Assembly: GCA_048884785.1 (NCBI GenBank)
Contig: JBHLQM010000036.1
Coordinates: 1 to 18,794 of the forward strand
Direction of reading: 5' to 3'
Length of the DNA: 18,794 nt
Source of the DNA: Candidatus Thorarchaeota archaeon
GTDB lineage: Archaea > Asgardarchaeota > Thorarchaeia > Thorarchaeales > Thorarchaeaceae
A program made the translations under genes and the position numbers. Of the stretch, positions 4,532 to 18,374 are shown piece by piece. Position 1 is the first letter of the stretch, and each line of letters begins with the position of its first letter. Under the pieces are notes generated by a model. That model worked only from the letters and a program-made list of their open reading frames with translations. It ran no database searches and had not been told where the DNA came from.

Positions 4532-6058
4532 TCATACATTGACTATTGGAAGTTGTATCACGAATCTTGCGCCTTTTGAAAAGTCGCCGCTAATTCTATC
4601 TTCTACCCATATCCTGCCGTTACATAGGTCTATTATTTGCTTTGCAAGAGTGAGCCCAATTCCCGAAACTGCTGTTTTTCCTTCATCTAGTCTGCCTAAG
4701 ATACCACCCTTCTTGCTATCAGGAACTCCAACACCTCTATCTTCAACTGTCACCTGAAGCAAGGATTTGTCTGTGGATAATCCTGCATTTATATCCAGAA
4801 CTACAGGTTCTTTGGTATCGTATTTAACCGCATTGTGAAAAAGATTATAGAATACATCGACGAGGAATTCGGTTCCACGAACAAAGTAGGCGCCTGGACT
4901 GATGTTGGAGTTAACCATTATTCTCCTGCTGGGAAATGTACTCTTGATAGAAGCAATAGCCTTGGAAACTGGTATGTAGATATCTGTTCGAACTTGCTGC
5001 ATTGCCGATGATTTGGCATCTGATAATCTCCTTACCCTAGAAATAAGATCTGCAGCTCTTTGTAGCTGCGAGATAGCGCTTTCAAGAAGCATCTTGCTAT
5101 GAGGTGTAATCTTCTCCTGGAAGGATATGAGCTCGAGTCCAGTCATCATGCCTTGGTGAATGTTATTCAAGTCATGGCTCATTAAGTCTATCAGAAACTC
5201 AGTGAACTTCCTTGCATCCTCAGCTTCTTTCTGAGCGCTATGCCTTCTTGTTACCTCAATGAAAATTGCAAGGACAGCGAGCTCTCCTTGGTAAACGATT
5301 CTTGCCCCATGCACTTCAAACCATAGAATTTCTCCATCTTTTCTGATGGCTCGAAATTCGAAAGATTCAGGAACTGGTTTCTTCTCAAGCCTATCTCGGA
5401 ACCTGGCAAAAAAAGGAGCTCGGTCTTCAGGATGGACTAGTTTGTATACTTCTTCTTCCTTCCAATGCAGCATTTCCTCTCTTGAGTAGTACAGCATTTT
5501 TTCGATTGCATCATTCACATATACTATCCTCAATGGGTTCGCCTGGGCAATCGTTATCCCCAAAACTGGTTGCCCTGTGAGGGCCCGATATTTTTCCTCA
5601 CTTTCCGTCAGGGCTTCAAGAACACGAACTTGATCTGAAATATCTCTTGCAAATCCTAGTGCGCCCAGCGGTGTTTTCTTTTCATCTCTCAGCAATAACC
5701 ATGAACTCTCTAACCAGATAGATGCTCCATCCTGGTGTTTTGCCTCAACCCGAATCATTCGGGGTATTTGAAGAATGGCGTCGATAGAATCCATTGATAG
5801 GGCATCAGTGAACGCTTTGCTTACAAGTGAAAATGATTCCGGCGTGATAAGTTCATCTAATGTCTTTTTCAACATCTCTTCTTGCGAATATCCAAGAAGA
5901 TTTCCTGCCATTGGACTTAAGTATGTCAGTTTGAGATTCATATCAATTGCCCATATTATCTCGGCAAATCTGTCCTGGGCTCTTCTTTTTTCTAATTCGG
6001 CAAGAAGAATTCTGTATTCTTCTTCTGATATGAAGGGTTTCATGAATTCGTATTTCAT
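4532..6058 (-). CDS. Cytoplasmic PAS-PAS sensor histidine kinase
   Basis: Two PAS/PAC domains (YLSP...LLGYSQEEM; VHPEDR...RKDGEILWFEV), H-box DLMSHDLNN, N-box NLFHNAVKY, G1 EDRGVGV, G2 SGIGLTLAK; no TM segment. Confidence 0.93.
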   Translation of the reverse strand: MKYEFMKPFISEEEYRILLAELEKRRAQDRFAEIIWAIDMNLKLTYLSPMAGNLLGYSQEEMLKKTLDELITPESFSLVSKAFTDALSMDSIDAILQIPRMIRVEAKHQDGASIWLESSWLLLRDEKKTPLGALGFARDISDQVRVLEALTESEEKYRALTGQPVLGITIAQANPLRIVYVNDAIEKMLYYSREEMLHWKEEEVYKLVHPEDRAPFFARFRDRLEKKPVPESFEFRAIRKDGEILWFEVHGARIVYQGELAVLAIFIEVTRRHSAQKEAEDARKFTEFLIDLMSHDLNNIHQGMMTGLELISFQEKITPHSKMLLESAISQLQRAADLISRVRRLSDAKSSAMQQVRTDIYIPVSKAIASIKSTFPSRRIMVNSNISPGAYFVRGTEFLVDVFYNLFHNAVKYDTKEPVVLDINAGLSTDKSLLQVTVEDRGVGVPDSKKGGILGRLDEGKTAVSGIGLTLAKQIIDLCNGRIWVEDRISGDFSKGARFVIQLPIVNV

Positions 6059-6110: not shown

Positions 6111-6899
6111 CTAGACCAAAGTAATTATCATTCCCCATTGACCGATACTGAGTTGGAGTTCATCTCGGTATTCCTTTACATATCCCTCTTCAATTCTCAT
6201 GTTTGAATCGAGCTCTACTTGTCTTATCTGGTCATTCCATAGAACAAGTTTGACTGCTCCAGTATCATCTGACAATATTGCATCAGCCACCTTCAATTCT
6301 TGGCTTGTCTTCCTAGAAGTGACTGTTCTCGTATCCGAAATATTTTCCACTAATCCCTCTACAACCACCCTTTGCTGTTTGTCTTGCAGATCCCCAATTT
6401 TCGACATTGCTCGAGGAAATCCATTTGAAATTCGTTTTTCATAGTAATTCCCCCTCCAGGTGGGATAATCATTTGTAATTCCGATGTGAATGAATCCCAC
6501 CTTCATATAAAATGGATTAGTTCTTGTATTCCATTCAGGAGTTCCCAATGCCCATAAGTCTGCAGAGGGATAAGCTTCCCACATTAATTCAAAGACTCTC
6601 ATACCAATGCCCCTTCTCATGTATGCCGGGTCAACCCAAATTCTCTCACAGACTTGATATCCAGGTCCTCTGTTTCCTGCAATGAATCCCCCAATTACAT
6701 TTTCATCGCAGAGAATCTTGTAGTATTGTAGATAATGGTTTTTTATTCGGCTTTGGTTCCATTCAATCGAATCATAGCCTGGCGGACCCCCTGGGCCTGG
6801 AGCACCTACTTCTGAATCAGAGTCGAATGCTCTCTTGCATGTTTTCGTTAATATTTCAACATCCTCTAATTCGGCTCTTTGCAGCGTAATATCAGTCAC
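6111..6899 (-). CDS. GNAT N-acetyltransferase fused to a C-terminal SSB/RPA-type OB fold
   Basis: aa 1-~157: GNAT (GPPGYDS; motif A IWVDPAYMRRGIG; TPEWN...FYMKVGF). aa 165-262: KIGDL...VVVEGLV...RTV...VADAILSDDTGAVKLVLWND...IEEGYVKEYRDELQLSIGQWG, which follows the crenarchaeal-SSB/RPA OB pattern. GTG start. Confidence 0.88.
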   Translation of the reverse strand: MTDITLQRAELEDVEILTKTCKRAFDSDSEVGAPGPGGPPGYDSIEWNQSRIKNHYLQYYKILCDENVIGGFIAGNRGPGYQVCERIWVDPAYMRRGIGMRVFELMWEAYPSADLWALGTPEWNTRTNPFYMKVGFIHIGITNDYPTWRGNYYEKRISNGFPRAMSKIGDLQDKQQRVVVEGLVENISDTRTVTSRKTSQELKVADAILSDDTGAVKLVLWNDQIRQVELDSNMRIEEGYVKEYRDELQLSIGQWGMIITLV

Positions 6900-7017
6900 A
6901 GTAGAAACGCCCCCGAAAGTTCAGACACAACTGTGCTATCAGGTCTTCTCTCAATCTTGACGAGCTATGCATCGACCCACCTGCTACATATGCTTCTCCT
7001 TCTACAGAAAGTGTTCA

Positions 7018-7767
7018 CTACCGACGCATATGTTTGAAGATGTCCAGAAGCTCTGAGATGTGTTCAATAACAATTACATCTTCTGGTGCCTTTTCGCTTT
7101 CCTCCAGACCACACCATACCAGCAAAATTGGAAGAAAATCGGCTCTTTTTGCCGCAGCTATATCATGCTTAATCCTATCCCCAATATATGCACACTTTCT
7201 TGGATTTATCCCAAGCTTAGACGCTACCTGAAGTAGCATATATGGTGATGGCTTCCTATACCCAGGCACACACGAGTATTCAACTGAATCAAATAGATGA
7301 AGAACTCCATCGGATTCAAGTCTTGGAAGAGGGTCGTTTCTCCTATTCGAGGCAACTCCTAGTTGATACCCGCTTGAGCGGAGGGTTTCCAGTACCTCTC
7401 TACATGGCTCTAGGAACCTAGGCATCATATTAGGGAGAGCTTTAAGCCATTCACTATGTGCATAGGAGGCCATTTCATTGAGATCTCCTTTCACTCCCAA
7501 TTCTTTCAAAATCAATCGGTCGTATTCTACTGAATCATCATATGATGGTAGCCAGTGCGGTTCCTGATTTGCTTCCACCAAATTTCTATCAAACAAATCA
7601 TCAATTCGATTAATAGTATCTTCAATGGTTTGATCCGAATATTCTTCAAACTCATGAAGCTCAAGTTCCTTGAGAATGAATCTCGTCATGACTGTGGTTT
7701 CTCTTGGCGTGTCATAGAGAATACCTCCCATGTCAAAAACCAGTGCACGGATATCCTCAAGACTCAT
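7018..7767 (-). CDS. HAD-superfamily hydrolase (subfamily IA-like)
   Basis: Motif I VFDMGGILYD, motif II ASN, motif III KPSP, motif IV YIGDRIKHD. Start set at ATG 7767 (track ORF begins at 7809). Confidence 0.88.
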   Translation of the reverse strand: MSLEDIRALVFDMGGILYDTPRETTVMTRFILKELELHEFEEYSDQTIEDTINRIDDLFDRNLVEANQEPHWLPSYDDSVEYDRLILKELGVKGDLNEMASYAHSEWLKALPNMMPRFLEPCREVLETLRSSGYQLGVASNRRNDPLPRLESDGVLHLFDSVEYSCVPGYRKPSPYMLLQVASKLGINPRKCAYIGDRIKHDIAAAKRADFLPILLVWCGLEESEKAPEDVIVIEHISELLDIFKHMRR

Positions 7768-7921
7768 GATGTCCCCCTTTGGGTTGAATCTTATAAGTAC
7801 ATCATTCATTCTGTTCTTTTTCCCCTTACCATGGACATGATTGCGCGCACTATTGCGCTATTCTTCTTGTATTATAGGCAGCAAGTATTATCTGAGTTGA
7901 ATCTAATTGGAGGTAGGATTC

Positions 7922-10979: not shown

Positions 10980-11366
10980 CTACTTCTCTAGAAGCTTGCC
11001 AATTTCCTTGGCGTATTTTCTCATCTGAGTGACAGCAAGTCCCATCGAAGTGAGATCTTTTGCTGAACCCATGATTAGAAACTCACCTGCGTGGGATAGA
11101 ACAACGAATCCATCCTTTCCTCTAATTACAACTTCATAAAGATCACTGAGCTCAAGTTTTTGAGCTGCCATCTCTCCCTGCACAAGCAGAGCTGCGCTAA
11201 CAGCAGCCATCAGGTCAGGATCAGCATCAGATTCCTCGGTGGCAAAATATGCAAGTTTCACTCCTTGCTTGCTGACAACGGCAATGGCATCTAAATCTGC
11301 ATAATTAGTCAATCCCATTAGGAGCTCAACGAGCTCTTTCTCTTTCTCTGGATCAATACTAGACAT
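10980..11366 (-). CDS. Roadblock/LC7 (MglB/LAMTOR-like) domain protein
   Basis: 128 aa; AIAVVSKQG...D.DLMAAVSAALL..GE.AAQKL....L.EVVIRGKDGFVVL..AG...MGL is the standard Roadblock pattern; its GGTGA ribosome-binding site overlaps the upstream TAG. Confidence 0.92.
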   Translation of the reverse strand: MSSIDPEKEKELVELLMGLTNYADLDAIAVVSKQGVKLAYFATEESDADPDLMAAVSAALLVQGEMAAQKLELSDLYEVVIRGKDGFVVLSHAGEFLIMGSAKDLTSMGLAVTQMRKYAKEIGKLLEK

Positions 11367-11377
11367 TTTTCTATCAC

Positions 11378-12289
11378 CTATTTAGCGACAAGCTTTCGTT
11401 TTTGCTGGCCTTTTTTGTCAGCTGTTTTTGCATCTCCTTCATCGATCTCTGATTTAAAGAAGCTAATCAAATCACCTAGTCTTTCTTTCATCTCAGTCTT
11501 TATTGGGCTCAGAATCGCGTCAGGAGTCCCTTTAAGAAGTTCAATACCAAGTACTCGTCCATCCTTGACGATTACTCTCGGTATGAAGCCTTCTGCCATG
11601 AAAGTGCCTTCAGGTGGGTCTCTAACCTTTTCGAACTTCCTCTCAATTTTTTCCTGACCAAATACTGACAGCTTGTGTTCTGCAACAGTGTATAGCTCAT
11701 TATACACAATCAGGAGTTCTCTCTGATACCCTTCAGGAGGTTCTTCCTGCTCAAGCTCGGCAATCATTGAGGAAACCTCAGAAGGATCAATTCTAGGACC
11801 AGCGGGAATTGCTGTTGGCGCTGGTCTTGGCGGCGATGTAGCAACCTTTGCTGTAGGCTTAGGTGTCGGTACTTCGGCCTTGGGCTTGACATCCTCTTCA
11901 ACTTTTACTGGTGGAGGTCTCTCAATAGTGACTTCTGCAGTTCGTGTTTCTTTGGGAATTGGGGGTCGCGGCGGCGGAGGTGCATCACCTGGTTTCATCA
12001 CTTTCGTAGCAGCAGTAGATCCATTCAGTGCCGAAAAGAATGTCGGAGGTTCTTCTCCTTCATCAAGTGGTCTCACTTTGAAATGAAATCCATACTCTGT
12101 CCTCAGATTCGTAGCCACTCTGGCACCAATGAATTTTCTGCGAATTCCTGCTTGGCTCCCCTTCCAGAGATAGATGCTTTTTGTTTCATCATCTACTACG
12201 CATACTACTTTCGTGGAATCAAGGTCTTCCTTTGATAGCTCCACTTCGTTTAGCGTCCCATCCTCTAAGACTTCATAGCCAGTAACCAT
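11378..12289 (-). CDS. Single-gelsolin-domain protein with Pro-rich linker and C-terminal unknown domain (Asgard 1DGelX-like)
   Basis: aa 1-89: LDSTKVVCVVD...IYLWKGS.A..RRKF.GAR.A..L...V..LDEGEEPPTFFSAL matches the gelsolin/villin core; aa ~90-167 are Pro/Thr/Lys-rich; aa ~168-260 look globular (PPEGYQRELLIV.NELY...PEGTF......PRVIVKDGRVLGIELLK). Confidence 0.85.
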   Translation of the reverse strand: MVTGYEVLEDGTLNEVELSKEDLDSTKVVCVVDDETKSIYLWKGSQAGIRRKFIGARVATNLRTEYGFHFKVRPLDEGEEPPTFFSALNGSTAATKVMKPGDAPPPPRPPIPKETRTAEVTIERPPPVKVEEDVKPKAEVPTPKPTAKVATSPPRPAPTAIPAGPRIDPSEVSSMIAELEQEEPPEGYQRELLIVYNELYTVAEHKLSVFGQEKIERKFEKVRDPPEGTFMAEGFIPRVIVKDGRVLGIELLKGTPDAILSPIKTEMKERLGDLISFFKSEIDEGDAKTADKKGQQKRKLVAK

Positions 12290-12581: not shown

Positions 12582-13637
12582 CTATTCTGTCCCAATGAGA
12601 TCGATTCCATACGGATTAATCGCAATGTTCACTCTGTGTCCGGGCTGGAGCTTGGCACTTTTCTCAGAGCTCGGTATTGATGTTTCAATCAGTTGCTTTT
12701 CAATCTCTAGCATTACTCTATAATGACCAACCTGAGGAGTTATGCCAATTATTGTTGCAGGTAAAGATTTCGTAGAATTATTCTCTATTCTTACGTCCTC
12801 AGGCTTCACAGAAAGCGTTACTTTGCTACCAACCTTTGCTGCCCCCTCTATTTGAATTGTCAAATTGCCAATTTTGACATCGAGCATACCAGCGGCTACG
12901 TTTTCAACAATCCCCCGTAGAATACTGCCACCTCCAATGAAAGTTGCAACGAACTCATTTGCAGGATTCCTGTACAGTTCCTCTGGCGTACCTGTTTGGA
13001 TGATTCTGCCATCATTCAAAATCGCGATTCTGTCTGATATCGCGAAAGCCTCTGACTGACTATGGGTAACATAAACAGTTGAAACACCAAGCTCTTGTTG
13101 TATCGACTTTATTTCCTCTTGAAGCCTCTGACGAAGCTTTGGGTCTAACGCACTAAGTGGTTCATCCAAGAGCAACAGCTCAGGCTCCAACGCTAATGCT
13201 CGGGCCAATGCAATTCTCTGTCCCTCTCCTCCACTAATCTCATTGATTTTTCGATGAAGCAGTTTTCTGACTCCCACAAGTTCTGCAAGTTCTTCCACTC
13301 GCCGAACCGCAGCTCTATGCTCCCAGCCAGCAACATCGAGAGCGAAGGCAATGTTTTGATATACAGTCATATTTGGAAAGAGCGCCACCGATTGAACTAC
13401 CATTCCTATTTTTCTCTCTCGAGGTGGCATCGTTGTAACATTTCTTTCATCAAATAGGAGGACACCGCCGTCCGGGTTTAGGAATCCCGCAATCATCCTG
13501 AGTGTAGTTGTCTTTCCTGACCCAGAGGGACCTAATAGAGCCATCATCTCTCCATCTTCAATTGTCAAGCTAATCGGTCCTATGCTAGTCCCATCTGGAA
13601 ATCTTTTCCGAAGGTCCTTAATCTCGATTCGAACCAT
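12582..13637 (-). CDS. thiQ: ABC transporter ATP-binding subunit (thiamine transporter by context; C-terminal TOBE-like domain)
   Basis: Walker A GPSGSGKTT, signature ISGGEGQR, Walker B LLLLDEP, H-loop YVTH; TAATG overlap with the permease gene. Confidence 0.85.
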   Translation of the reverse strand: MVRIEIKDLRKRFPDGTSIGPISLTIEDGEMMALLGPSGSGKTTTLRMIAGFLNPDGGVLLFDERNVTTMPPRERKIGMVVQSVALFPNMTVYQNIAFALDVAGWEHRAAVRRVEELAELVGVRKLLHRKINEISGGEGQRIALARALALEPELLLLDEPLSALDPKLRQRLQEEIKSIQQELGVSTVYVTHSQSEAFAISDRIAILNDGRIIQTGTPEELYRNPANEFVATFIGGGSILRGIVENVAAGMLDVKIGNLTIQIEGAAKVGSKVTLSVKPEDVRIENNSTKSLPATIIGITPQVGHYRVMLEIEKQLIETSIPSSEKSAKLQPGHRVNIAINPYGIDLIGTE

Positions 13638-15301
13638 TACAGTGTCCCTCCATATCCATTTTGAGAGAACTTCTCGATCAATATGAACGCTGCAACACAG
13701 AAACCAACTAACACCAATGAAGCCGCTCCAGCATCAACAAACTTCCTTACTGCTAAGTCACGATAGATGAGTATTGAGAGCGTGAAATTCTCGGGCCGGG
13801 CTAGAAATATAGTTGCTGACATCTCACCTATTGCCATGGCGAATGAAAAAACTGCGGCAACAATTATGCCCTGCGCTAATAATGGTAGTTCAACAAAGAA
13901 AAGCCTCTGGAGGGTATTTGCTCCCAAGGATTCCGCTTGCTCCAATAGTGCCTGATCTATCTTGGACATGGCTATTTCTAAAGCTCTCGCACTGAATGGA
14001 ATCCCTATAATGGTCTGAGCGATTACTATGAGTATCCAAGGATTGATAGTAAGACCCAGAGGCACTGCCAATGCTATCATCAATCCATACGCGATAGTGA
14101 TTGCAGAGACTCCCAATGGCAGTAGCGTAATCATCGACGATAGATTCGCAAGTCCCCTGATTTTTTCTCTCTGTGTATATGCCAAAATTGTTCCCAGTAT
14201 TACTGAAAATACTGTAGCCAGTGACGCATAAAATAATGAGTTAATGAGGGGCACCAAGCCACCATTAATCCCTGGAGTCCCAAGATTCACAAATCCGTTT
14301 AAAGTGAGTTGTCTTGTGTTTGGGTCATATATTGCTGCTCGAATAATCGATATCATAGGTCCAAAGCTTAGTAGCAGGAGAATGAAGGAATAAAACACAA
14401 TGAGAACTCTTGCTGTTTTTGAGAGCTCCCCGAGTGTGTATGTACGTGCATACCCCGTCTGACCAGATGTTTCATGTCTTCCGGTTCCAAGGCGAACATA
14501 TGAATATGCAAGAGTAATAGTAATGAGTATCTGCAAAAGAGCCAATGAGCTTGATTCTCCATAATCAAAGAAACGGAATGCATTCCAAATTTGAACTTCA
14601 ATGGTTAGGTAGGCACCCTCACCCAACGCTAGAACTATTGGAAATGACATAAAACAGAAAAGAAACGTCAAAATAGAAGCTGCAAATACAGAAGCACGAA
14701 TGTGAGGAATGATTATTCGCTTCAACTTCTGAACTGTATTTGCCCCAAGAACTTCTGCCATTTCTTCATACTCAGGATTTAGTTTCTCGAGTGCTGCTGA
14801 CACAATCAGAATGAATAGGGGGATGTTGTAGAATGCGTGTGCCAAGATTATTCCAGTGAATCCACTGGCCAAATCAAGAACCGATTCTTGGCTATTTAGT
14901 ATGAATCTGGCCATTGTGTCAAGGATACCTCCACTTCCAAACATTTGGAGGAATCCAACTACAACAACAATTGGTGGTAGTACAAAGGGCACGATAAGCA
15001 GTGCGCGAAGGAGTGATTTTCCGGTAAAGCTTAGTTTCGCCAAAAGAAATGCCCCTGGCAATCCCAAAATAAGAGCTAATAGCGTGCTCAATACTGCTTG
15101 AATGAGGGTGAATGATAGTATTCGATGTGTTACTACGGACGTTATCACTTCTTCAAACTTCGAGCCAGGTCCTACAGTTAGTCCTTGCACAAGAACGATA
15201 CCTACTGGGATGATAAGGAAAAAGACAAGCAATAGAAAGGGAATCGAGAGAACTGCGTACTGCAAGAACCTTCTCTTTTCCACACAGCATTCCTCTTTCA
15301 T
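13637..15301 (-). CDS. thiP: ABC transporter permease with two fused TM domains (ThiP/FbpB type)
   Basis: FTLIQAVLSTLL...GLPGA, PFVLPPIVV, ILAHAFYNIP, two EAA loops (EEMAEVLGA, LEQAESLGA); ATGA overlap with thiB. Confidence 0.88.
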   Translation of the reverse strand: MKEECCVEKRRFLQYAVLSIPFLLLVFFLIIPVGIVLVQGLTVGPGSKFEEVITSVVTHRILSFTLIQAVLSTLLALILGLPGAFLLAKLSFTGKSLLRALLIVPFVLPPIVVVVGFLQMFGSGGILDTMARFILNSQESVLDLASGFTGIILAHAFYNIPLFILIVSAALEKLNPEYEEMAEVLGANTVQKLKRIIIPHIRASVFAASILTFLFCFMSFPIVLALGEGAYLTIEVQIWNAFRFFDYGESSSLALLQILITITLAYSYVRLGTGRHETSGQTGYARTYTLGELSKTARVLIVFYSFILLLLSFGPMISIIRAAIYDPNTRQLTLNGFVNLGTPGINGGLVPLINSLFYASLATVFSVILGTILAYTQREKIRGLANLSSMITLLPLGVSAITIAYGLMIALAVPLGLTINPWILIVIAQTIIGIPFSARALEIAMSKIDQALLEQAESLGANTLQRLFFVELPLLAQGIIVAAVFSFAMAIGEMSATIFLARPENFTLSILIYRDLAVRKFVDAGAASLVLVGFCVAAFILIEKFSQNGYGGTL

Positions 15302-16416
15302 CCAGTCATTATGGCGTCATATTCATCTAGCCAAGATTCTAGATTCGAAGCTATTTCGGCGCTTGAAAATAGTTCGTTCAGCAAATTAATGTCATCTGGA
15401 TGCAACGCATAATCAAAGGCTGGATCGAAGTCAACATCCATGTTTGCTGGAAACATCCACTGATTTAATGATATATAGCCCTGAACTGCAGGTGTCAAGC
15501 AATACTCAATGAAACTCTGGGCAAGTGATGGATTTGGGCCATTCTTAACCAAACCTATCCCCTCCACCTGCATCCAAGCATAATCGCTTCCTTCAAAATG
15601 TATTGGTGCTATAGCTGTATTGGGCGTTCCACCCGTATAATAGGCATCGTATGCAGGATCTGTCCCATAGCTAACAAGTAAATGCTTTGTTGGATCCGAA
15701 TCCCATTTCGTCCAAGCTTCGGTCCATCCCTCTTGAACATCAATACTGCCTTTCACACTGCTCCACCACTGAGTCCAGTCCTCTTCCATTAGTTTGTCAT
15801 AGACTGCTATTTGACCAAGCAAGAACGCCAGGCCGGGGCTACTGAAATGTGGATTTTCAGTTACCAAATATGAAGAAAGATCTGACAACCCAAGAAAAGT
15901 CATGTTCTCAATCTGCGGATGCGATGTTGCATTGATTTCCGAAGGTCTGTAAATGACTGTTACTAGTCCAAAATCAAATGGAACAATGTAATGCTCAGGA
16001 TCGAGGGCGTTTATTATAGAGCCTTCAATTAGGTCAAGGTTGGCCGGCGTGAATCGTTCAAGAACGCTTTTTGCGATGGCCTGCAAAATCAGTATATTGT
16101 CTATCCCAATGACCACATCCGCAACTGGATTTTCAGCCTCAGCCACAAGCCTTGAAACAATCCCATTTGCATCTGTCGAAAGGCGTTCAATCTTAATATC
16201 GACTCCATACTGCGCTTCAAAAGGAGAGAAGACGATATTGTCAATGGTGTCGGGGTCATCACCCCATAACATGAAACTATCATAGGTGTACACAGTAAAG
16301 GTGGGTCGTTGATATGTGAGGATGCCATATGATGCGATGGCGATAATTATGACTACTGCAATAGCCACAACTACCTTCTTTGGATCCCTACGAACAGGAT
16401 ACTCCGACTCTGACAT
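15298..16416 (-). CDS. thiB: Thiamine/TPP ABC transporter substrate-binding protein, N-terminally membrane-anchored
   Basis: ThiB motifs TVYTYDSF, ADVVIGIDN, PFDFG, ENP..SSPGLAFLL, GW.EAW, VSYGTDPAY, QVEG, QWMFPAN; a single N-terminal TM helix. Confidence 0.92.
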   Translation of the reverse strand: MSESEYPVRRDPKKVVVAIAVVIIIAIASYGILTYQRPTFTVYTYDSFMLWGDDPDTIDNIVFSPFEAQYGVDIKIERLSTDANGIVSRLVAEAENPVADVVIGIDNILILQAIAKSVLERFTPANLDLIEGSIINALDPEHYIVPFDFGLVTVIYRPSEINATSHPQIENMTFLGLSDLSSYLVTENPHFSSPGLAFLLGQIAVYDKLMEEDWTQWWSSVKGSIDVQEGWTEAWTKWDSDPTKHLLVSYGTDPAYDAYYTGGTPNTAIAPIHFEGSDYAWMQVEGIGLVKNGPNPSLAQSFIEYCLTPAVQGYISLNQWMFPANMDVDFDPAFDYALHPDDINLLNELFSSAEIASNLESWLDEYDAIMTG

Positions 16417-16504: not shown

Positions 16505-17434
16505 ATGCGTCCGCCGTGTGAACTTGTTCAACGTGAATACTTACCTGTGCTGAGATCCCGCCTGTCAAAGAAACTCAGGGAGCGTGGCTATTCTCAAAAT
16601 GATATTGCCGAATGCCTTGGTCTAACACAGGCGGCTGTGAGTAAATACCTCGCGCAAGATTATTCGCCAAATCCACTCAATGAAACAGTTGATATCACTG
16701 CCTCTCGGATGGCAAATATGATTATTCAAGAGAATTCAACGTCAGATTTGCTGGTAAAGGAAGTATGTGAAGCATGTATGAGCCTTCGTATTGGTGCCGA
16801 TATTTGCATGATGCATAGAGAATCTGTGCCATCTCTGCGCGATCCACAGTGCGAGATTTGTGCAAGTTTACTTGGTGGAGAGGACAAGTTTCTAGTTAAG
16901 AGAGCAAAGATTCTTGAAGAGATGACAGAGGCACTCAGACTAATCTACAAATCCAATTCATTTGCCAAGCTTGTGCCACAAGTCAGGGCAAATCTTGTCG
17001 CATGTAATAAGGATGCATCAAACATATCGGATGTAATAGGTGTACCCGGACGGATAACATTGATCGAAGGGAAGGCACGAGCTTTAGTTGGCCCACGATT
17101 TGGTGCATCAAAACATATGGCTCTACTGCTTCTAGAGGTCAGGAAGCTCTGGTCTGATGTCTTCGCTTGTCTATGTCTTAGTGGAAGAAGCGAAATCATA
17201 GAAGCTGCAAGAGAGGAAGGCGTGAGAATCATTGGCATCAAGGAATCTCAAAGCGATCCAGTTATGATTGCAGGACTTGTTCGAGAATCTAAAGCAAAAA
17301 GAAGACAAGGGATTGCAACTGGGATCCATGTTCCCGGAGGCATTGGAGTCGAGCCCATTCTATACCTCTTCGCAAAGAGCCCCCTCGAACTGAGTTCAAT
17401 AAGTGAGGCGCTGGGCTCACATCAGAGGTTCTAG
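16505..17434 (+). CDS. thiR: ThiR-type transcription regulator (XRE HTH, Cys-rich linker, ThiN-like thiamine-phosphate-binding domain)
   Basis: MRPPCE...LP..R......L...GYSQ.DIA..LGLTQAAVSKYL HTH; C..C...C..H...C..C linker; ThiN-like L.PQVR.NL, GVPGRIT, FGASKH.A, GG.G.EP..Y; divergent from thiBPQ. Confidence 0.88.
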   Translation: MRPPCELVQREYLPVLRSRLSKKLRERGYSQNDIAECLGLTQAAVSKYLAQDYSPNPLNETVDITASRMANMIIQENSTSDLLVKEVCEACMSLRIGADICMMHRESVPSLRDPQCEICASLLGGEDKFLVKRAKILEEMTEALRLIYKSNSFAKLVPQVRANLVACNKDASNISDVIGVPGRITLIEGKARALVGPRFGASKHMALLLLEVRKLWSDVFACLCLSGRSEIIEAAREEGVRIIGIKESQSDPVMIAGLVRESKAKRRQGIATGIHVPGGIGVEPILYLFAKSPLELSSISEALGSHQRF

Positions 17435-17510
17435 CGACACTGTTTGTGTTACATCGATTTATCTTTCAAACTTCTTTAGTACCGACAGAGGCTTTATCGA
17501 GCTGACAACA

Positions 17511-18374
17511 ATGGTCGAAATTCGGCAAGGGAAACTAAGTGATTGCAAGGATCTACTCACCGTATATCAAACAACTAGATGGTATTATTTGGAACGAGAG
17601 AACGGATATACTACTGTAGAGGATGTAAAGGCGGAACACCAGCTGCTTGGATTTAAGAACTGGGGTTGGTTGGTTGCTGAAAAGGACGGCATTGTGATTG
17701 GTGAAATCGTCTTTAGGGTTGAGAAGAACCCTGTTGCAGGCAGAATTGGAATTATCCGGAGCTTGGATGTTGATGTTCGCCATCAAAAGACCACTATTGG
17801 AACTCAGCTAACGAGAGCTGCAGAAAAGACTCTCAAGGAGAAACGAGCCGCCAGAGTTGTTTCTATTTCCCCTCCTGAAGCCTACAATTTCTGGATGAAA
17901 GTAGAATACTTCGCCAGAGGAAGCTTGGTGAATATCAATGTAAATCCCGAGAGGGTAAAGAAAGTATCTCCAAAGGGTATGAAGCCATTTGAAATTAAGA
18001 ACCTTGATAAACTCCCGAAATCAATGGAGTTTTCAAATTTGGCGGTACCTGGGCTGATTGTAGAAATGATTAACCAAATCAAGATGAAACAGAGCTCAGG
18101 CAAGTTGTATGAATTCTATCAATCAGATGCCTTGATTGGGATTGGCGCTTTAAGAAGAGTAACACCAAAGCTCGCGGAATTCGTGATTGATTGCACTCTT
18201 CTTGGTAAAACGCATTTTGGTTTTCTTGTTGACAAAATTGCCACTGCTGCAATCAGACTTGGAGTGAAGAGAATTCTGAGCAAAATCCCCAAAGACCAGG
18301 TTGACCTCTACAGATCTGTTGGGCGCTGGTCTGTTGAGGATGCTCGTGAGATTCCTGTGACTCGTCTGCTTTGA
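17511..18374 (+). CDS. GNAT-family acetyltransferase, probably with a second degenerate GNAT-like domain
   Basis: MVEIRQG..., WLVAEKDG.VIG, motif A LDVDVRHQKTTIGTQL..AAE, AYNFW.K..Y. Start set at ATG 17511 because the track start (17403) overlaps thiR. Confidence 0.8.
   Translation: MVEIRQGKLSDCKDLLTVYQTTRWYYLERENGYTTVEDVKAEHQLLGFKNWGWLVAEKDGIVIGEIVFRVEKNPVAGRIGIIRSLDVDVRHQKTTIGTQLTRAAEKTLKEKRAARVVSISPPEAYNFWMKVEYFARGSLVNINVNPERVKKVSPKGMKPFEIKNLDKLPKSMEFSNLAVPGLIVEMINQIKMKQSSGKLYEFYQSDALIGIGALRRVTPKLAEFVIDCTLLGKTHFGFLVDKIATAAIRLGVKRILSKIPKDQVDLYRSVGRWSVEDAREIPVTRLL

Follow-up and report, generated by a model that had tools for sequence, protein, structure and literature searches.

Single-stranded DNA-binding proteins of the SsoSSB (1o7i, 2mna, 7wcg) and human SSB1/SOSS-B1 (5d8e, 5d8f, 4owt) type are built on a single OB domain of the PF21473 family, followed by a flexible C-terminal tail that recruits partners. 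Archaeal SSB1-type OB domains bind ssDNA as well as ssRNA, and tail-less SSBs occur in Heimdall and Korarchaeota lineages (PMC10684826). Among acetyltransferases, the RimI/Ard1 (Naa10-type) N-alpha-acetyltransferases (9mto, 5isv, 2cnm, 4pv6, 4r3k) are small single-domain GNATs of ~150 aa, and the Sulfolobus enzyme SsArd1, whose acceptor pocket is bounded by the α1-α2 and β6-β7 loops and by β4/β5, acetylates the N-termini of SSB, Alba and Hjc (PMC5390088). Other GNATs include PaiA of B. subtilis (1tiq), a spermidine/spermine N1-acetyltransferase, and the enzymes directed to nucleic acid or aminoacyl-tRNA, TmcA/NAT10 and the GNAT toxins TacT, AtaT and KacT. Here, we describe an archaeal protein in which a GNAT domain is fused to an SSB-type OB domain. 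Structure searches recovered no PDB chain spanning both domains and full-text searching of the literature gave no paper describing a GNAT-OB fusion, in agreement with an earlier sequence-only reading, which knew of no characterised protein with this architecture.

The sequence-only reading named no strand for the gene, which lies on the minus strand of the window, the whole stretch of 18,794 nucleotides of Thorarchaeota DNA that was analysed. The coding sequence (6111..6899, minus strand) starts with GTG at 6899 and ends with TAG at 6113-6111, giving 262 aa plus stop; the single, internally stop-free ORF announced from the letters of the DNA was thus found, and a database protein with GNAT and OB Pfam domains matches its product at 100%. 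A GGGGG run at 6910..6914 (minus strand), 11-15 nt 5' of the GTG, is a possible ribosome-binding site as judged from the sequence, and intergenic gaps of 52 and 118 bp flank the coding sequence. The internal ATG at 6407-6405 (M165) has no preceding Shine-Dalgarno-like sequence in the window and, in the family alignment, M165 is not kept beyond the Thor clade. Separate translation of the OB domain from ATG 6407 is therefore not supported by these sequence features.

The first 156 residues (6432..6899, minus strand) form a GNAT domain with β1-α1-α2-β2-β3-β4-α3-β5-α4-β6-β7 topology in the AF2 model. Both Acetyltransf_7 (PF13508, 31.4 bits for a gathering cutoff of 27) and Acetyltransf_1 (PF00583, aa 47-137, 28.6 bits for a cutoff of 20.7) match above threshold, and Foldseek and VIA returned Z scores of 13-16 to many GNATs, RimI, Ard1 and PaiA among them. 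The top fold matches were RimI 9mto (Z 15.8, rmsd 1.5 Å, 138 aa), Ard1 4pv6 (Z 15.1) and RimI 5isv (Z 14.9), with rmsd of 1.5-2.3 Å, a ranking which is weak since the top matches, unrelated GNATs included, are within ~1 Z of each other. The GNAT half is only 13-19% identical to RimI and Ard1, differs from them in its α1-α2 loop motif (GGPPGYDS) and is joined to a nucleic-acid-binding domain that both of them lack; the score with the TIGR01575 rimI model (22.7 bits) is below its equivalog cutoff of 86.4.

The GNAT half carries conserved motifs. The MRRGIG acetyl-CoA loop that had been recognised by eye was located at M94-R-R-G97-I-G99 (6603..6620, minus strand), between β4 and α3, where it would bind the pyrophosphate; it corresponds to the Q/R-x-x-G-x-G/A loop of GNATs. 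In 181 weighted family sequences, from which the other residue conservation figures (Y131, R191, W221, Y240, Y244) also derive, G97 is kept in 96% and position 99 is G/A in 97%. The domain is an intact GNAT. Two further motifs mark a distinct subfamily. The first, GAPGPGGPPGYDS (aa 32-44, 6768..6806, minus strand), occupies the α1-α2 loop, with G38, P39 and Y42 invariant in fused and stand-alone relatives, and by analogy with SsArd1 may form one wall of the acceptor pocket (PMC5390088). The second, W116-x-LGTPEWNxRTxxFYxKxGF (aa 116-136, 6492..6554, minus strand), is also found in stand-alone GNATs; W116 and G135 are conserved in 100% of the family and Y131, the likely general acid, in 90%. 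Given the intact acetyl-CoA loop, the conserved Tyr131 and the subfamily-specific acceptor pocket, the GNAT half most likely moves acetyl from acetyl-CoA to an amine.

Stand-alone GNATs carrying the GGPPGYDS and TPxWNxRT motifs are 150-165 aa long, lack an OB domain and are 35-46% identical to the GNAT half, with which they have all pocket and acetyl-CoA motifs in common. Their hosts are mostly bacterial (Bacillota, Chloroflexota, Acidobacteriota, Poribacteria), and Bathyarchaeota and Asgard archaea also have them. Genes of the bacterial members adjoin serine-hydrolase, GyrI-like and VanZ genes. Other fusions of the subfamily involve pentapeptide repeats, a SWIM zinc finger, transglutaminase-like, AAA_18 or metallo-beta-lactamase domains. 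The suggestion that the protein is a chimera with a bacterial-type GNAT is consequently plausible: the GGPPGYDS and W.LGTPxWN motifs are indeed shared with mostly bacterial stand-alone enzymes, yet with Bathyarchaeota and Asgard ones too, and the OB half is nearest to archaeal SSB/RPA.

The GNAT domain is followed by the linker ISNGFPRA (aa 157-164, 6408..6431, minus strand), seen in the translation, the alignment and the AF2 model, and from M165 onwards by an OB fold of SsoSSB/hSSB1 type (aa 165-262, 6114..6407, minus strand). Ssb-like_OB (PF21473) matches aa 179-258 with 35.3 bits (38.4 for the lone domain) above a gathering cutoff of 24, and the tRNA_anti-codon OB family PF01336 also matches the domain alone (29.4 bits). 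The best NCBIfam SSB equivalog of the PRK06461 models, NF005049, scores 66-69.5 bits, below its cutoff of 188. The OB half superposes on SsoSSB 1o7i with rmsd of 1.4-1.5 Å over 94-96 columns (TM by target 0.73-0.77), and the structure search also retrieved the RPA OB 3e0e (Z 13.4) and hSSB1 5d8e (Z 13.1). Compared with SsoSSB and hSSB1, to which identity is ~26%, it lacks the flexible C-terminal tail, as had been proposed, V262 closing the last OB strand, and carries an enzyme fused at its N-terminus.

The three base-stacking aromatics thought to be retained in LVLW, EGY and KEY are present. HMMER aligned the protein with S. solfataricus SSB (1o7i/2mna, E 3e-6) such that W221 (codon 6237..6239), Y240 (6180..6182) and Y244 (6168..6170), all on the minus strand, fall on W56, W75 and F79; W221 is 100% conserved, while Y/F is found in 89% of the family at position 240 and in 96% at position 244. 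R191, conserved in 93%, and V193 align with SsoSSB R28 and I30. Retention of this triad and of the basic residues R191, R196 and K197, as in SsoSSB and hSSB1, makes single-stranded DNA or RNA the most likely ligand of the OB half. Its net charge is -5 in the 262-aa protein. The host genome also encodes separate SSBs and an RPA-like protein, so that the fusion is not its sole SSB; the OB cores of these SSBs look acidic-rich too, by eye and uncounted.

Three predictions agree that the OB domain is packed rigidly on GNAT strand β6, beside the acceptor pocket. The AF2 model of the fusion has a pLDDT of 92.6 and a pTM of 0.86, and its two-domain shape recurs in 56 Thorarchaeota proteins that form one ESM Atlas cluster (TM 0.91, rmsd 1.9 Å over 259 residues). 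When the halves were folded as two chains, ipSAE reached 0.78 versus 0.30 for the best control, with at least 97% of contacts in common between runs and a partner pLDDT of at least 90; of the solved complexes, 58 of 80 reach this ipSAE mark, as do 2 of 110 mismatched pairs, counts that apply here only approximately because our own alignments were supplied. The predicted interface involves residues 76-81, 114, 138-144, 146 and 152 on the GNAT side and 164-165, 177, 179, 223, 226-227, 235, 237-238 and 257-262 on the OB side, and leaves the aromatic triad W221/Y240/Y244 outside its listed contacts. In this arrangement, which is not seen in SsoSSB or hSSB1, the C-terminal β-strand of the OB domain (aa 257-262, 6114..6131, minus strand) is predicted to pair with the GNAT edge strand β6 (aa 138-144) and to extend the GNAT sheet, so that the OB domain would adjoin the β6-β7 turn, which walls the acceptor pocket on one side. 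Since W221 is two residues away from the interface residue D223, a strand bound to the OB domain would have one of its ends near the GNAT domain.

The same fusion recurs in several archaeal lineages and is conserved in many archaea of sediments, which answers the question of architecture and taxonomic spread raised by the sequence-only reading. More than 180 distinct full-length homologues, from independent assemblies including closed chromosomes, share the GNAT and OB architecture and none has a stop at the junction; the homologue search gave 213 clusters, the best 120 of which are all near full length. The uninterrupted fusion is present in 75 species-level genomes. Its hosts are Thorarchaeota (64-71% identity), Heimdall-, Hod- and Hermodarchaeota, many Bathyarchaeia and Theionarchaea; the gene is optional and its distribution patchy. 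Rooted on five bacterial stand-alone GNATs, the fusions form a single clade (SH-aLRT 97). Both halves evolve under purifying selection, with dN/dS values of ~0.11 (GNAT) and ~0.14 (OB) in 41 Thor orthologue pairs. A genuine stand-alone 98-aa OB protein was found (P0189). A 96-aa OB protein (P0155), considered as a split form, was rejected because it is part of a fusion gene lying on a short contig.

The surroundings of the gene are conserved at short evolutionary range only. ORF clustering of 22 loci with 8-kb flanks and of 75 loci with 3-kb flanks gave no conserved neighbours beyond local synteny in close Thorarchaeota, which share a PAS kinase, an ICMT-like methyltransferase, an MFS transporter and a EutA-like protein, and neither antitoxin-like partners nor polyamine genes were kept nearby in either set. 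PADLOC models gave no match at E <= 0.1 with the whole protein or either half, and there was no phage match. Plasmid matches were Bacillus/Clostridium GNATs only, the two inspected being of 309 and 318 aa, the size of GNAT-pentapeptide fusions. The idea that the protein is a stress or antiviral effector is left unsupported by these PADLOC, phage, conserved-neighbour and antitoxin searches.

The reading we prefer, giving it about an even chance of being right, is that of a rigid two-domain acetyltransferase tethered to single-stranded nucleic acid and representing a conserved but optional archaeal family. Binding of single-stranded nucleic acid would localise or activate the enzyme, which would then acetylate an amine on something bound to the same strand. 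The acceptor would most likely be an N-terminus or lysine of a protein bound to nucleic acid; the nearest folds are RimI/Ard1, and Sulfolobus Ard1 acetylates SSB, Alba and Hjc. The pocket motifs are nevertheless all common to OB-less stand-alone bacterial enzymes, so that the acceptor would be older than the fusion and does not have to be a protein on nucleic acid. The net charge of -5 of the OB half also speaks against the preferred reading, and no conserved neighbour indicates a substrate. A bolder version, which we regard as unlikely, is a nucleic-acid-templated enzyme: the OB domain would guide an ssDNA or RNA end, or else a factor carried along on it, into the pocket of the GNAT, and the enzyme would acetylate a base, aminoacyl or terminal amine of the nucleic acid, or act on bound proteins or polyamines only when ssDNA or RNA is present.

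Doubtful, but deserving the most attention among the alternatives, is a small-molecule acceptor (a polyamine, another nucleic-acid-binding amine or a xenobiotic) ancestral to the GNAT subfamily, the OB domain placing the enzyme on single-stranded nucleic acid, where polyamines would accumulate, or making it responsive to nucleic acid. PaiA is the best solved profile relative of the subfamily over the whole GNAT domain (1tiq, E 1.7e-12), a value that measures relatedness only, as well as one of the top Foldseek matches; the next profile matches include the polyamine/diamine acetyltransferases 8a9o, 2bei, 2fl4 and SpeG. The stand-alone bacterial relatives with identical pocket motifs, their serine-hydrolase, GyrI-like and VanZ neighbours and their fusions to pentapeptide repeats are also consistent with such an acceptor. 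However, at such similarity between GNATs the acceptor is not predictable, PaiA lacks both subfamily motifs (GGPPGYDS being absent in the alignment) and the OB domain, the NCBIfam PaiA model NF053587 gives 14.9 bits for a cutoff of 250, and polyamine genes are not conserved near the 22 and 75 fusion loci. That the acceptor is itself nucleic acid or aminoacyl-tRNA is improbable in our estimation. The OB domain would then hold a single-stranded end (tRNA 3' end or RNA) while the GNAT acetylates an aminoacyl amine or a base, as TacT, AtaT and KacT or TmcA/NAT10 do, and the PF01336 match of the OB domain alone, the position of W221 next to the predicted interface, a weak KacT profile match (E 4.8e-4) and the optional nature of the gene in variable surroundings would fit. 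The likeness to these systems is one of concept: the fusion has two domains only in its 262 aa, without the helicase/ATPase or DUF1726 module of TmcA/NAT10, and, unlike the toxins, has no adjacent antitoxin-like gene, the flanking gaps being merely 52 and 118 bp. PADLOC matches are absent, the marginal KacT signal ranks far under generic GNATs, and the stand-alone relatives are devoid of an RNA-binding module.

OB folds often serve as protein-binding modules and many GNATs dimerise through edge strand β6, which raises the question of whether the OB domain has taken on a structural or protein-binding role without binding nucleic acid, capping β6 or recruiting a protein partner. The predicted pairing of the last OB strand with β6 and the acidic character of the OB half (net -5) argue for such a role. 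We nonetheless judge it unlikely, since the stacking residues and R191 are among the most conserved of the family and none of them is in the predicted interface; moreover, the genome's own SSB OB cores likewise look acidic-rich by eye. As for an artefact, in which errors of sequencing or assembly misjoined neighbouring GNAT and ssb genes or the gene is a decaying pseudogene, nothing speaks for it except the in-frame ATG 6407 at the domain boundary, and its probability is negligible. The uninterrupted homologues from independent assemblies and closed chromosomes, together with the dN/dS values, rule out misassembly, chance and pseudogene. Furthermore, the 3-kb surroundings of the 13 stand-alone GNAT genes examined contain no OB gene, so that no split form is available to misjoin.

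Both domains of the protein are textbook folds, and their combination is new among the studied enzymes and solved structures that we found. The small size of the protein (262 aa) and its rigid, well-folded predicted structure should favour expression, making the question directly testable. Were the templated reading true, acetyl-CoA availability would be written directly onto single-stranded nucleic acid, and the archaeal relatives of eukaryotes would contain nucleic-acid-dependent acetyltransferases of a new class. With a polyamine or nucleic acid as acceptor, the chemistry would be new for a GNAT and OB combination. Should the enzyme act on a protein of replication, repair, RNA or chromatin, the fusion would provide a simple prokaryotic model of locally targeted acetylation, an idea otherwise linked to eukaryotic chromatin and to the action of p300 on hSSB1. 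Conservation of the fusion across Asgard archaea, Bathyarchaeia and Theionarchaea suggests that a link between acetyl-CoA chemistry and single-stranded nucleic acid is genuinely and repeatedly needed.

The minus-strand ORF at 6111-6899 encodes an uninterrupted protein of 262 aa, beginning at a GTG at 6899 with a GGGGG run 11-15 nt upstream. As proposed in the sequence-only reading, it joins a GNAT domain to an OB fold, both recognized above the Pfam cutoffs: Acetyltransf_7 (31.4 bits, cutoff 27) and Acetyltransf_1 (28.6 bits, cutoff 20.7) matched aa 47-137, and the Ssb-like OB model PF21473 matched aa 179-258 (35.3 bits, cutoff 24), rising to 38.4 bits when the C-terminal part was scanned alone. 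All the motifs quoted in that reading were found, and the internal methionine at which it began the OB domain is M165 (ATG at 6407-6405). Archaeal SSB/RPA models matched partially and far under their cutoffs (best, NF005049, 66 vs 188 bits), and no NCBIfam model spanned the entire protein.

A word-indexed search recovered 213 homologous clusters. The best 120 of these were all near full length (256-326 aa, 65-74% identity), nearly all had both GNAT and OB Pfam matches, and they were labelled Thor-, Sif-, Hod-, Hermod- or Promethearchaeota. In an exhaustive search of representatives, full-length fusions made up about a dozen clusters at 50% identity; the search also gave many stand-alone GNATs (OB-free relatives of 150-165 aa, 35-46% identity) and SSB/RPA proteins aligning to the OB part only. 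Scanning species-representative genomes led to 75 archaeal fusion loci, in which every fusion not cut by a contig end was full length. A stop between the domains, which would have denoted two genes or an assembly error, was found in the matched frame of none of the 75; the fusion is genuine and an artefact is excluded. Among these loci were Thorarchaeota fusions (64-71% identity, plus a subgroup at 53-55%), Heimdall-, Hod- and Hermodarchaeota fusions (40-50%), about 25 from Bathyarchaeia, closed chromosomes included (36-51%), and two from Theionarchaea (43-44%). One contig (L091, DATKWN010000031.1) is binned as a Krumholzibacteriaceae bacterium; its fusion falls within a Bathyarchaeia clade on a short branch near loci L093 and L098, and the contig is probably archaeal and misbinned. 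Identical fusion proteins are encoded at loci L076 and L077, on contigs labelled Thorarchaeota (TM1M.79) and Heimdallarchaeota (TM2S.58) in the same study; their sequence clusters with the Heimdall/Hod clade, and at least one of the two labels is probably wrong.

In a maximum-likelihood tree rooted with 5 bacterial stand-alone GNATs, the fusions formed a single clade (SH-aLRT 97), which splits into lineage-specific groups. Distribution within the window's phylum is patchy: 74 of 400 genomes matched at E <= 1e-20, with 42 of 85 in the window's family, 15 of 22 and 10 of 19 in two others, and nearly none in the remaining families. Two divergent copies are present in some Thorarchaeota. The window's genome has a single copy; distinct from it are SSB-like genes whose products have RGG-rich tails, a gene for an SSB-like protein of 158 aa, and one for an RPA-like protein with multiple OBs. 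Because of this patchiness and these separate SSB/RPA-like genes, the fusion is an optional extra and not the main SSB of the cell. Three near-identical SSB-type OB genes lie on contigs C7, C85 and C109 of the same assembly (G000; loci L003, L005 and L004): the two complete genes have long RGG/GGY-rich tails (193 and 182 aa) and the third is a 126-aa ORF without one. They could be true paralogues or collapsed strain variants (bin contamination 5.4%). The multi-OB RPA-like gene (L006, contig C49) enters a run of N, bases either withheld or unassembled, and its C-terminal part is unreadable.

Both halves of the fusion are under constraint: across 41 pairs of Thorarchaeota orthologues in which dS was unsaturated, dN/dS had a median of 0.11 (GNAT) and 0.14 (OB). 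When 181 distinct members of the family were aligned and weighted, the acetyl-CoA loop proved to be retained (G97 96%, G/A99 97%) and Y131 in α4 was present in 90%. On the OB side, W221, aligned to W56 of S. solfataricus SSB (SsoSSB), is invariant (100%), Y240 (W75) is Y/F in 89%, Y244 (F79) is Y/F in 96%, R191 (R28) stands at 93% and V193 (I30) at 98%.

The whole chain was predicted by AlphaFold2, from a 20-sequence alignment, with a mean pLDDT of 92.6 and a pTM of 0.86. Using Foldseek, the OB half superposed on SsoSSB (1o7i, rmsd 1.4-1.5 Å) and the GNAT half resembled many small GNATs; no PDB chain covered both domains. Exhaustive VIA-align comparison of the GNAT half placed RimI 9mto at the top (Z 15.8, rmsd 1.5 Å over 138 aa), with Thermoplasma Ard1 4pv6 (Z 15.1) and E. 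coli RimI 5isv (Z 14.9), these scores all lying less than or about 1 Z from those of other GNATs; the OB half matched the RPA OB 3e0e (Z 13.4) and human SSB1 5d8e (Z 13.1). An independent model, of an ESM Atlas cluster of 56 Thorarchaeota proteins, shares this two-domain shape (TM 0.91, rmsd 1.9 Å over 259 residues). When the halves were folded as separate chains, ipSAE was 0.78 vs 0.30 for the best control, with at least 97% contact agreement between runs and partner pLDDT of at least 90. Of 80 solved complexes 58 attained this value, against 2 of 110 mismatched pairs; it is a model confidence and not a measurement, and the counts hold only roughly because custom alignments were used. The predicted interface involves β6 (138-144), the β6-β7 turn (146), β7 (152) and the β3-β4 turn (76-81) of the GNAT. 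The OB contributes its C-terminal strand (257-262), the beginning of β1 (177, 179), residues 223 and 226-227 in the helix that follows W221, and the beginning of β4 (235, 237-238); the aromatic triad W221/Y240/Y244 is absent from the contact list. The acceptor peptide of Sulfolobus Ard1 sits between the α1-α2 loop, the β6-β7 loop and β4/β5 (PMC5390088). Since this site borders the β6-β7 loop, the OB is predicted to lie beside one wall of the GNAT acceptor pocket, the other wall of which would be the GGPPGYDS motif.

The gene is separated by 118 bp from a HAD hydrolase gene (7018-7809) and by 52 bp from a PAS histidine kinase gene (4532-6058). Beyond close-relative synteny, no conserved neighbour was found in 22 loci (8-kb flanks) or 75 loci (3-kb flanks), and neither PADLOC nor phage sequences gave a match to the fusion, findings that speak against its having an operon partner or belonging to a toxin-antitoxin pair or a defence island. 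Plasmid matches were Bacillus/Clostridium GNATs only, and no OB gene adjoined any of 13 stand-alone GNAT genes. A genuine stand-alone, tail-less OB of 98 aa, 52% identical to the OB half, is encoded at L122:3001-3581, with a FEN1/XPG nuclease next to it and a TRAM-domain gene immediately downstream; TRAM proteins act as RNA chaperones in archaea. Elsewhere in the window, a 128-aa Roadblock/LC7-domain protein (10980-11366, minus) lies directly downstream of a Pfam-less 303-aa ORF (11378-12289, minus); Roadblock proteins, which often pair with small GTPases, count among the eukaryote-like signature genes typical of Asgard archaea. A three-gene ABC importer (12582-16416, minus; SBP_bac_6 binding protein, 554-aa double permease, ATPase with a TOBE domain) is divergent from an HTH-ThiN gene (16505-17434, plus; thiamine-phosphate synthase-like), and the locus may serve thiamine or iron(III) uptake. 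A second, unrelated GNAT-domain protein (17403-18374, plus, 323 aa) starts with GTG, and its gene shares 32 nt with the end of the ThiN gene.

The GNAT half falls in a distinct subfamily, with GAPGPGGPPGYDS in the α1-α2 loop and W-x-LGTPxWNxRTxxFYxKxGF. Both motifs are retained in stand-alone GNATs of Anaerolineae, Poribacteria, Acidobacteriota, Gaiellaceae, Bathyarchaeota and Asgard genomes, and the ESM Atlas has them in large clusters from Bacillota and Chloroflexota; other fusion partners of the subfamily are pentapeptide repeats, SWIM zinc finger, transglutaminase-like, AAA_18 and metallo-beta-lactamase domains. Since both motifs are common to stand-alone GNATs, the acceptor specificity would be older than the fusion. 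The suggested chimeric origin is plausible, the GNAT motifs being kept in stand-alone, largely bacterial, proteins. Two subfamily members on Bacillus and Cytobacillus plasmids (L123:4001-4930 and L124:3992-4948; 309 and 318 aa) match in size the GNAT-pentapeptide-repeat (DNA-mimic type) fusions P0181 and P0193 and lie near serine-hydrolase, GyrI-like and VanZ genes, a hint that the subfamily's role may be small-molecule or topoisomerase-related.

The best-supported reading is a rigid GNAT-OB enzyme whose SSB-type OB would bind single-stranded nucleic acid, the bound strand tethering or gating the GNAT, whose pocket would adjoin the OB; the exact course of the strand relative to the pocket is inferred. 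Positions aligned to the base-stacking and contact residues of SsoSSB rank among the most conserved in the fusion, and a purely structural OB appears less likely. The canonical SSB of Crenarchaeota binds both ssDNA and ssRNA and serves as an RNA chaperone, and SSBs without a tail exist in Heimdall and Korarchaeota (PMC10684826). The acceptor would most likely be a nucleic-acid-bound protein; the N-termini of SSB, Alba and Hjc are acetylated by Sulfolobus Ard1 (PMC5390088). A small, polyamine-like acceptor is a serious rival, as B. subtilis PaiA is the solved structure that the subfamily profile matches best (E 1.7e-12, full length), with generic GNATs and several polyamine acetyltransferases next. 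Direct action of the GNAT on nucleic acid or aminoacyl-tRNA is a less likely reading, and the evidence at hand gives no sign of chemistry beyond what ordinary GNATs perform.

Full-text literature searching brought up no account of a GNAT-SSB/OB fusion; none is mentioned in a survey of archaeal fusion proteins, and a preprint on Asgard histone acetyltransferases concerns other GNATs. The GNAT-OB architecture is novel and widespread, and the enzyme is open to direct testing.
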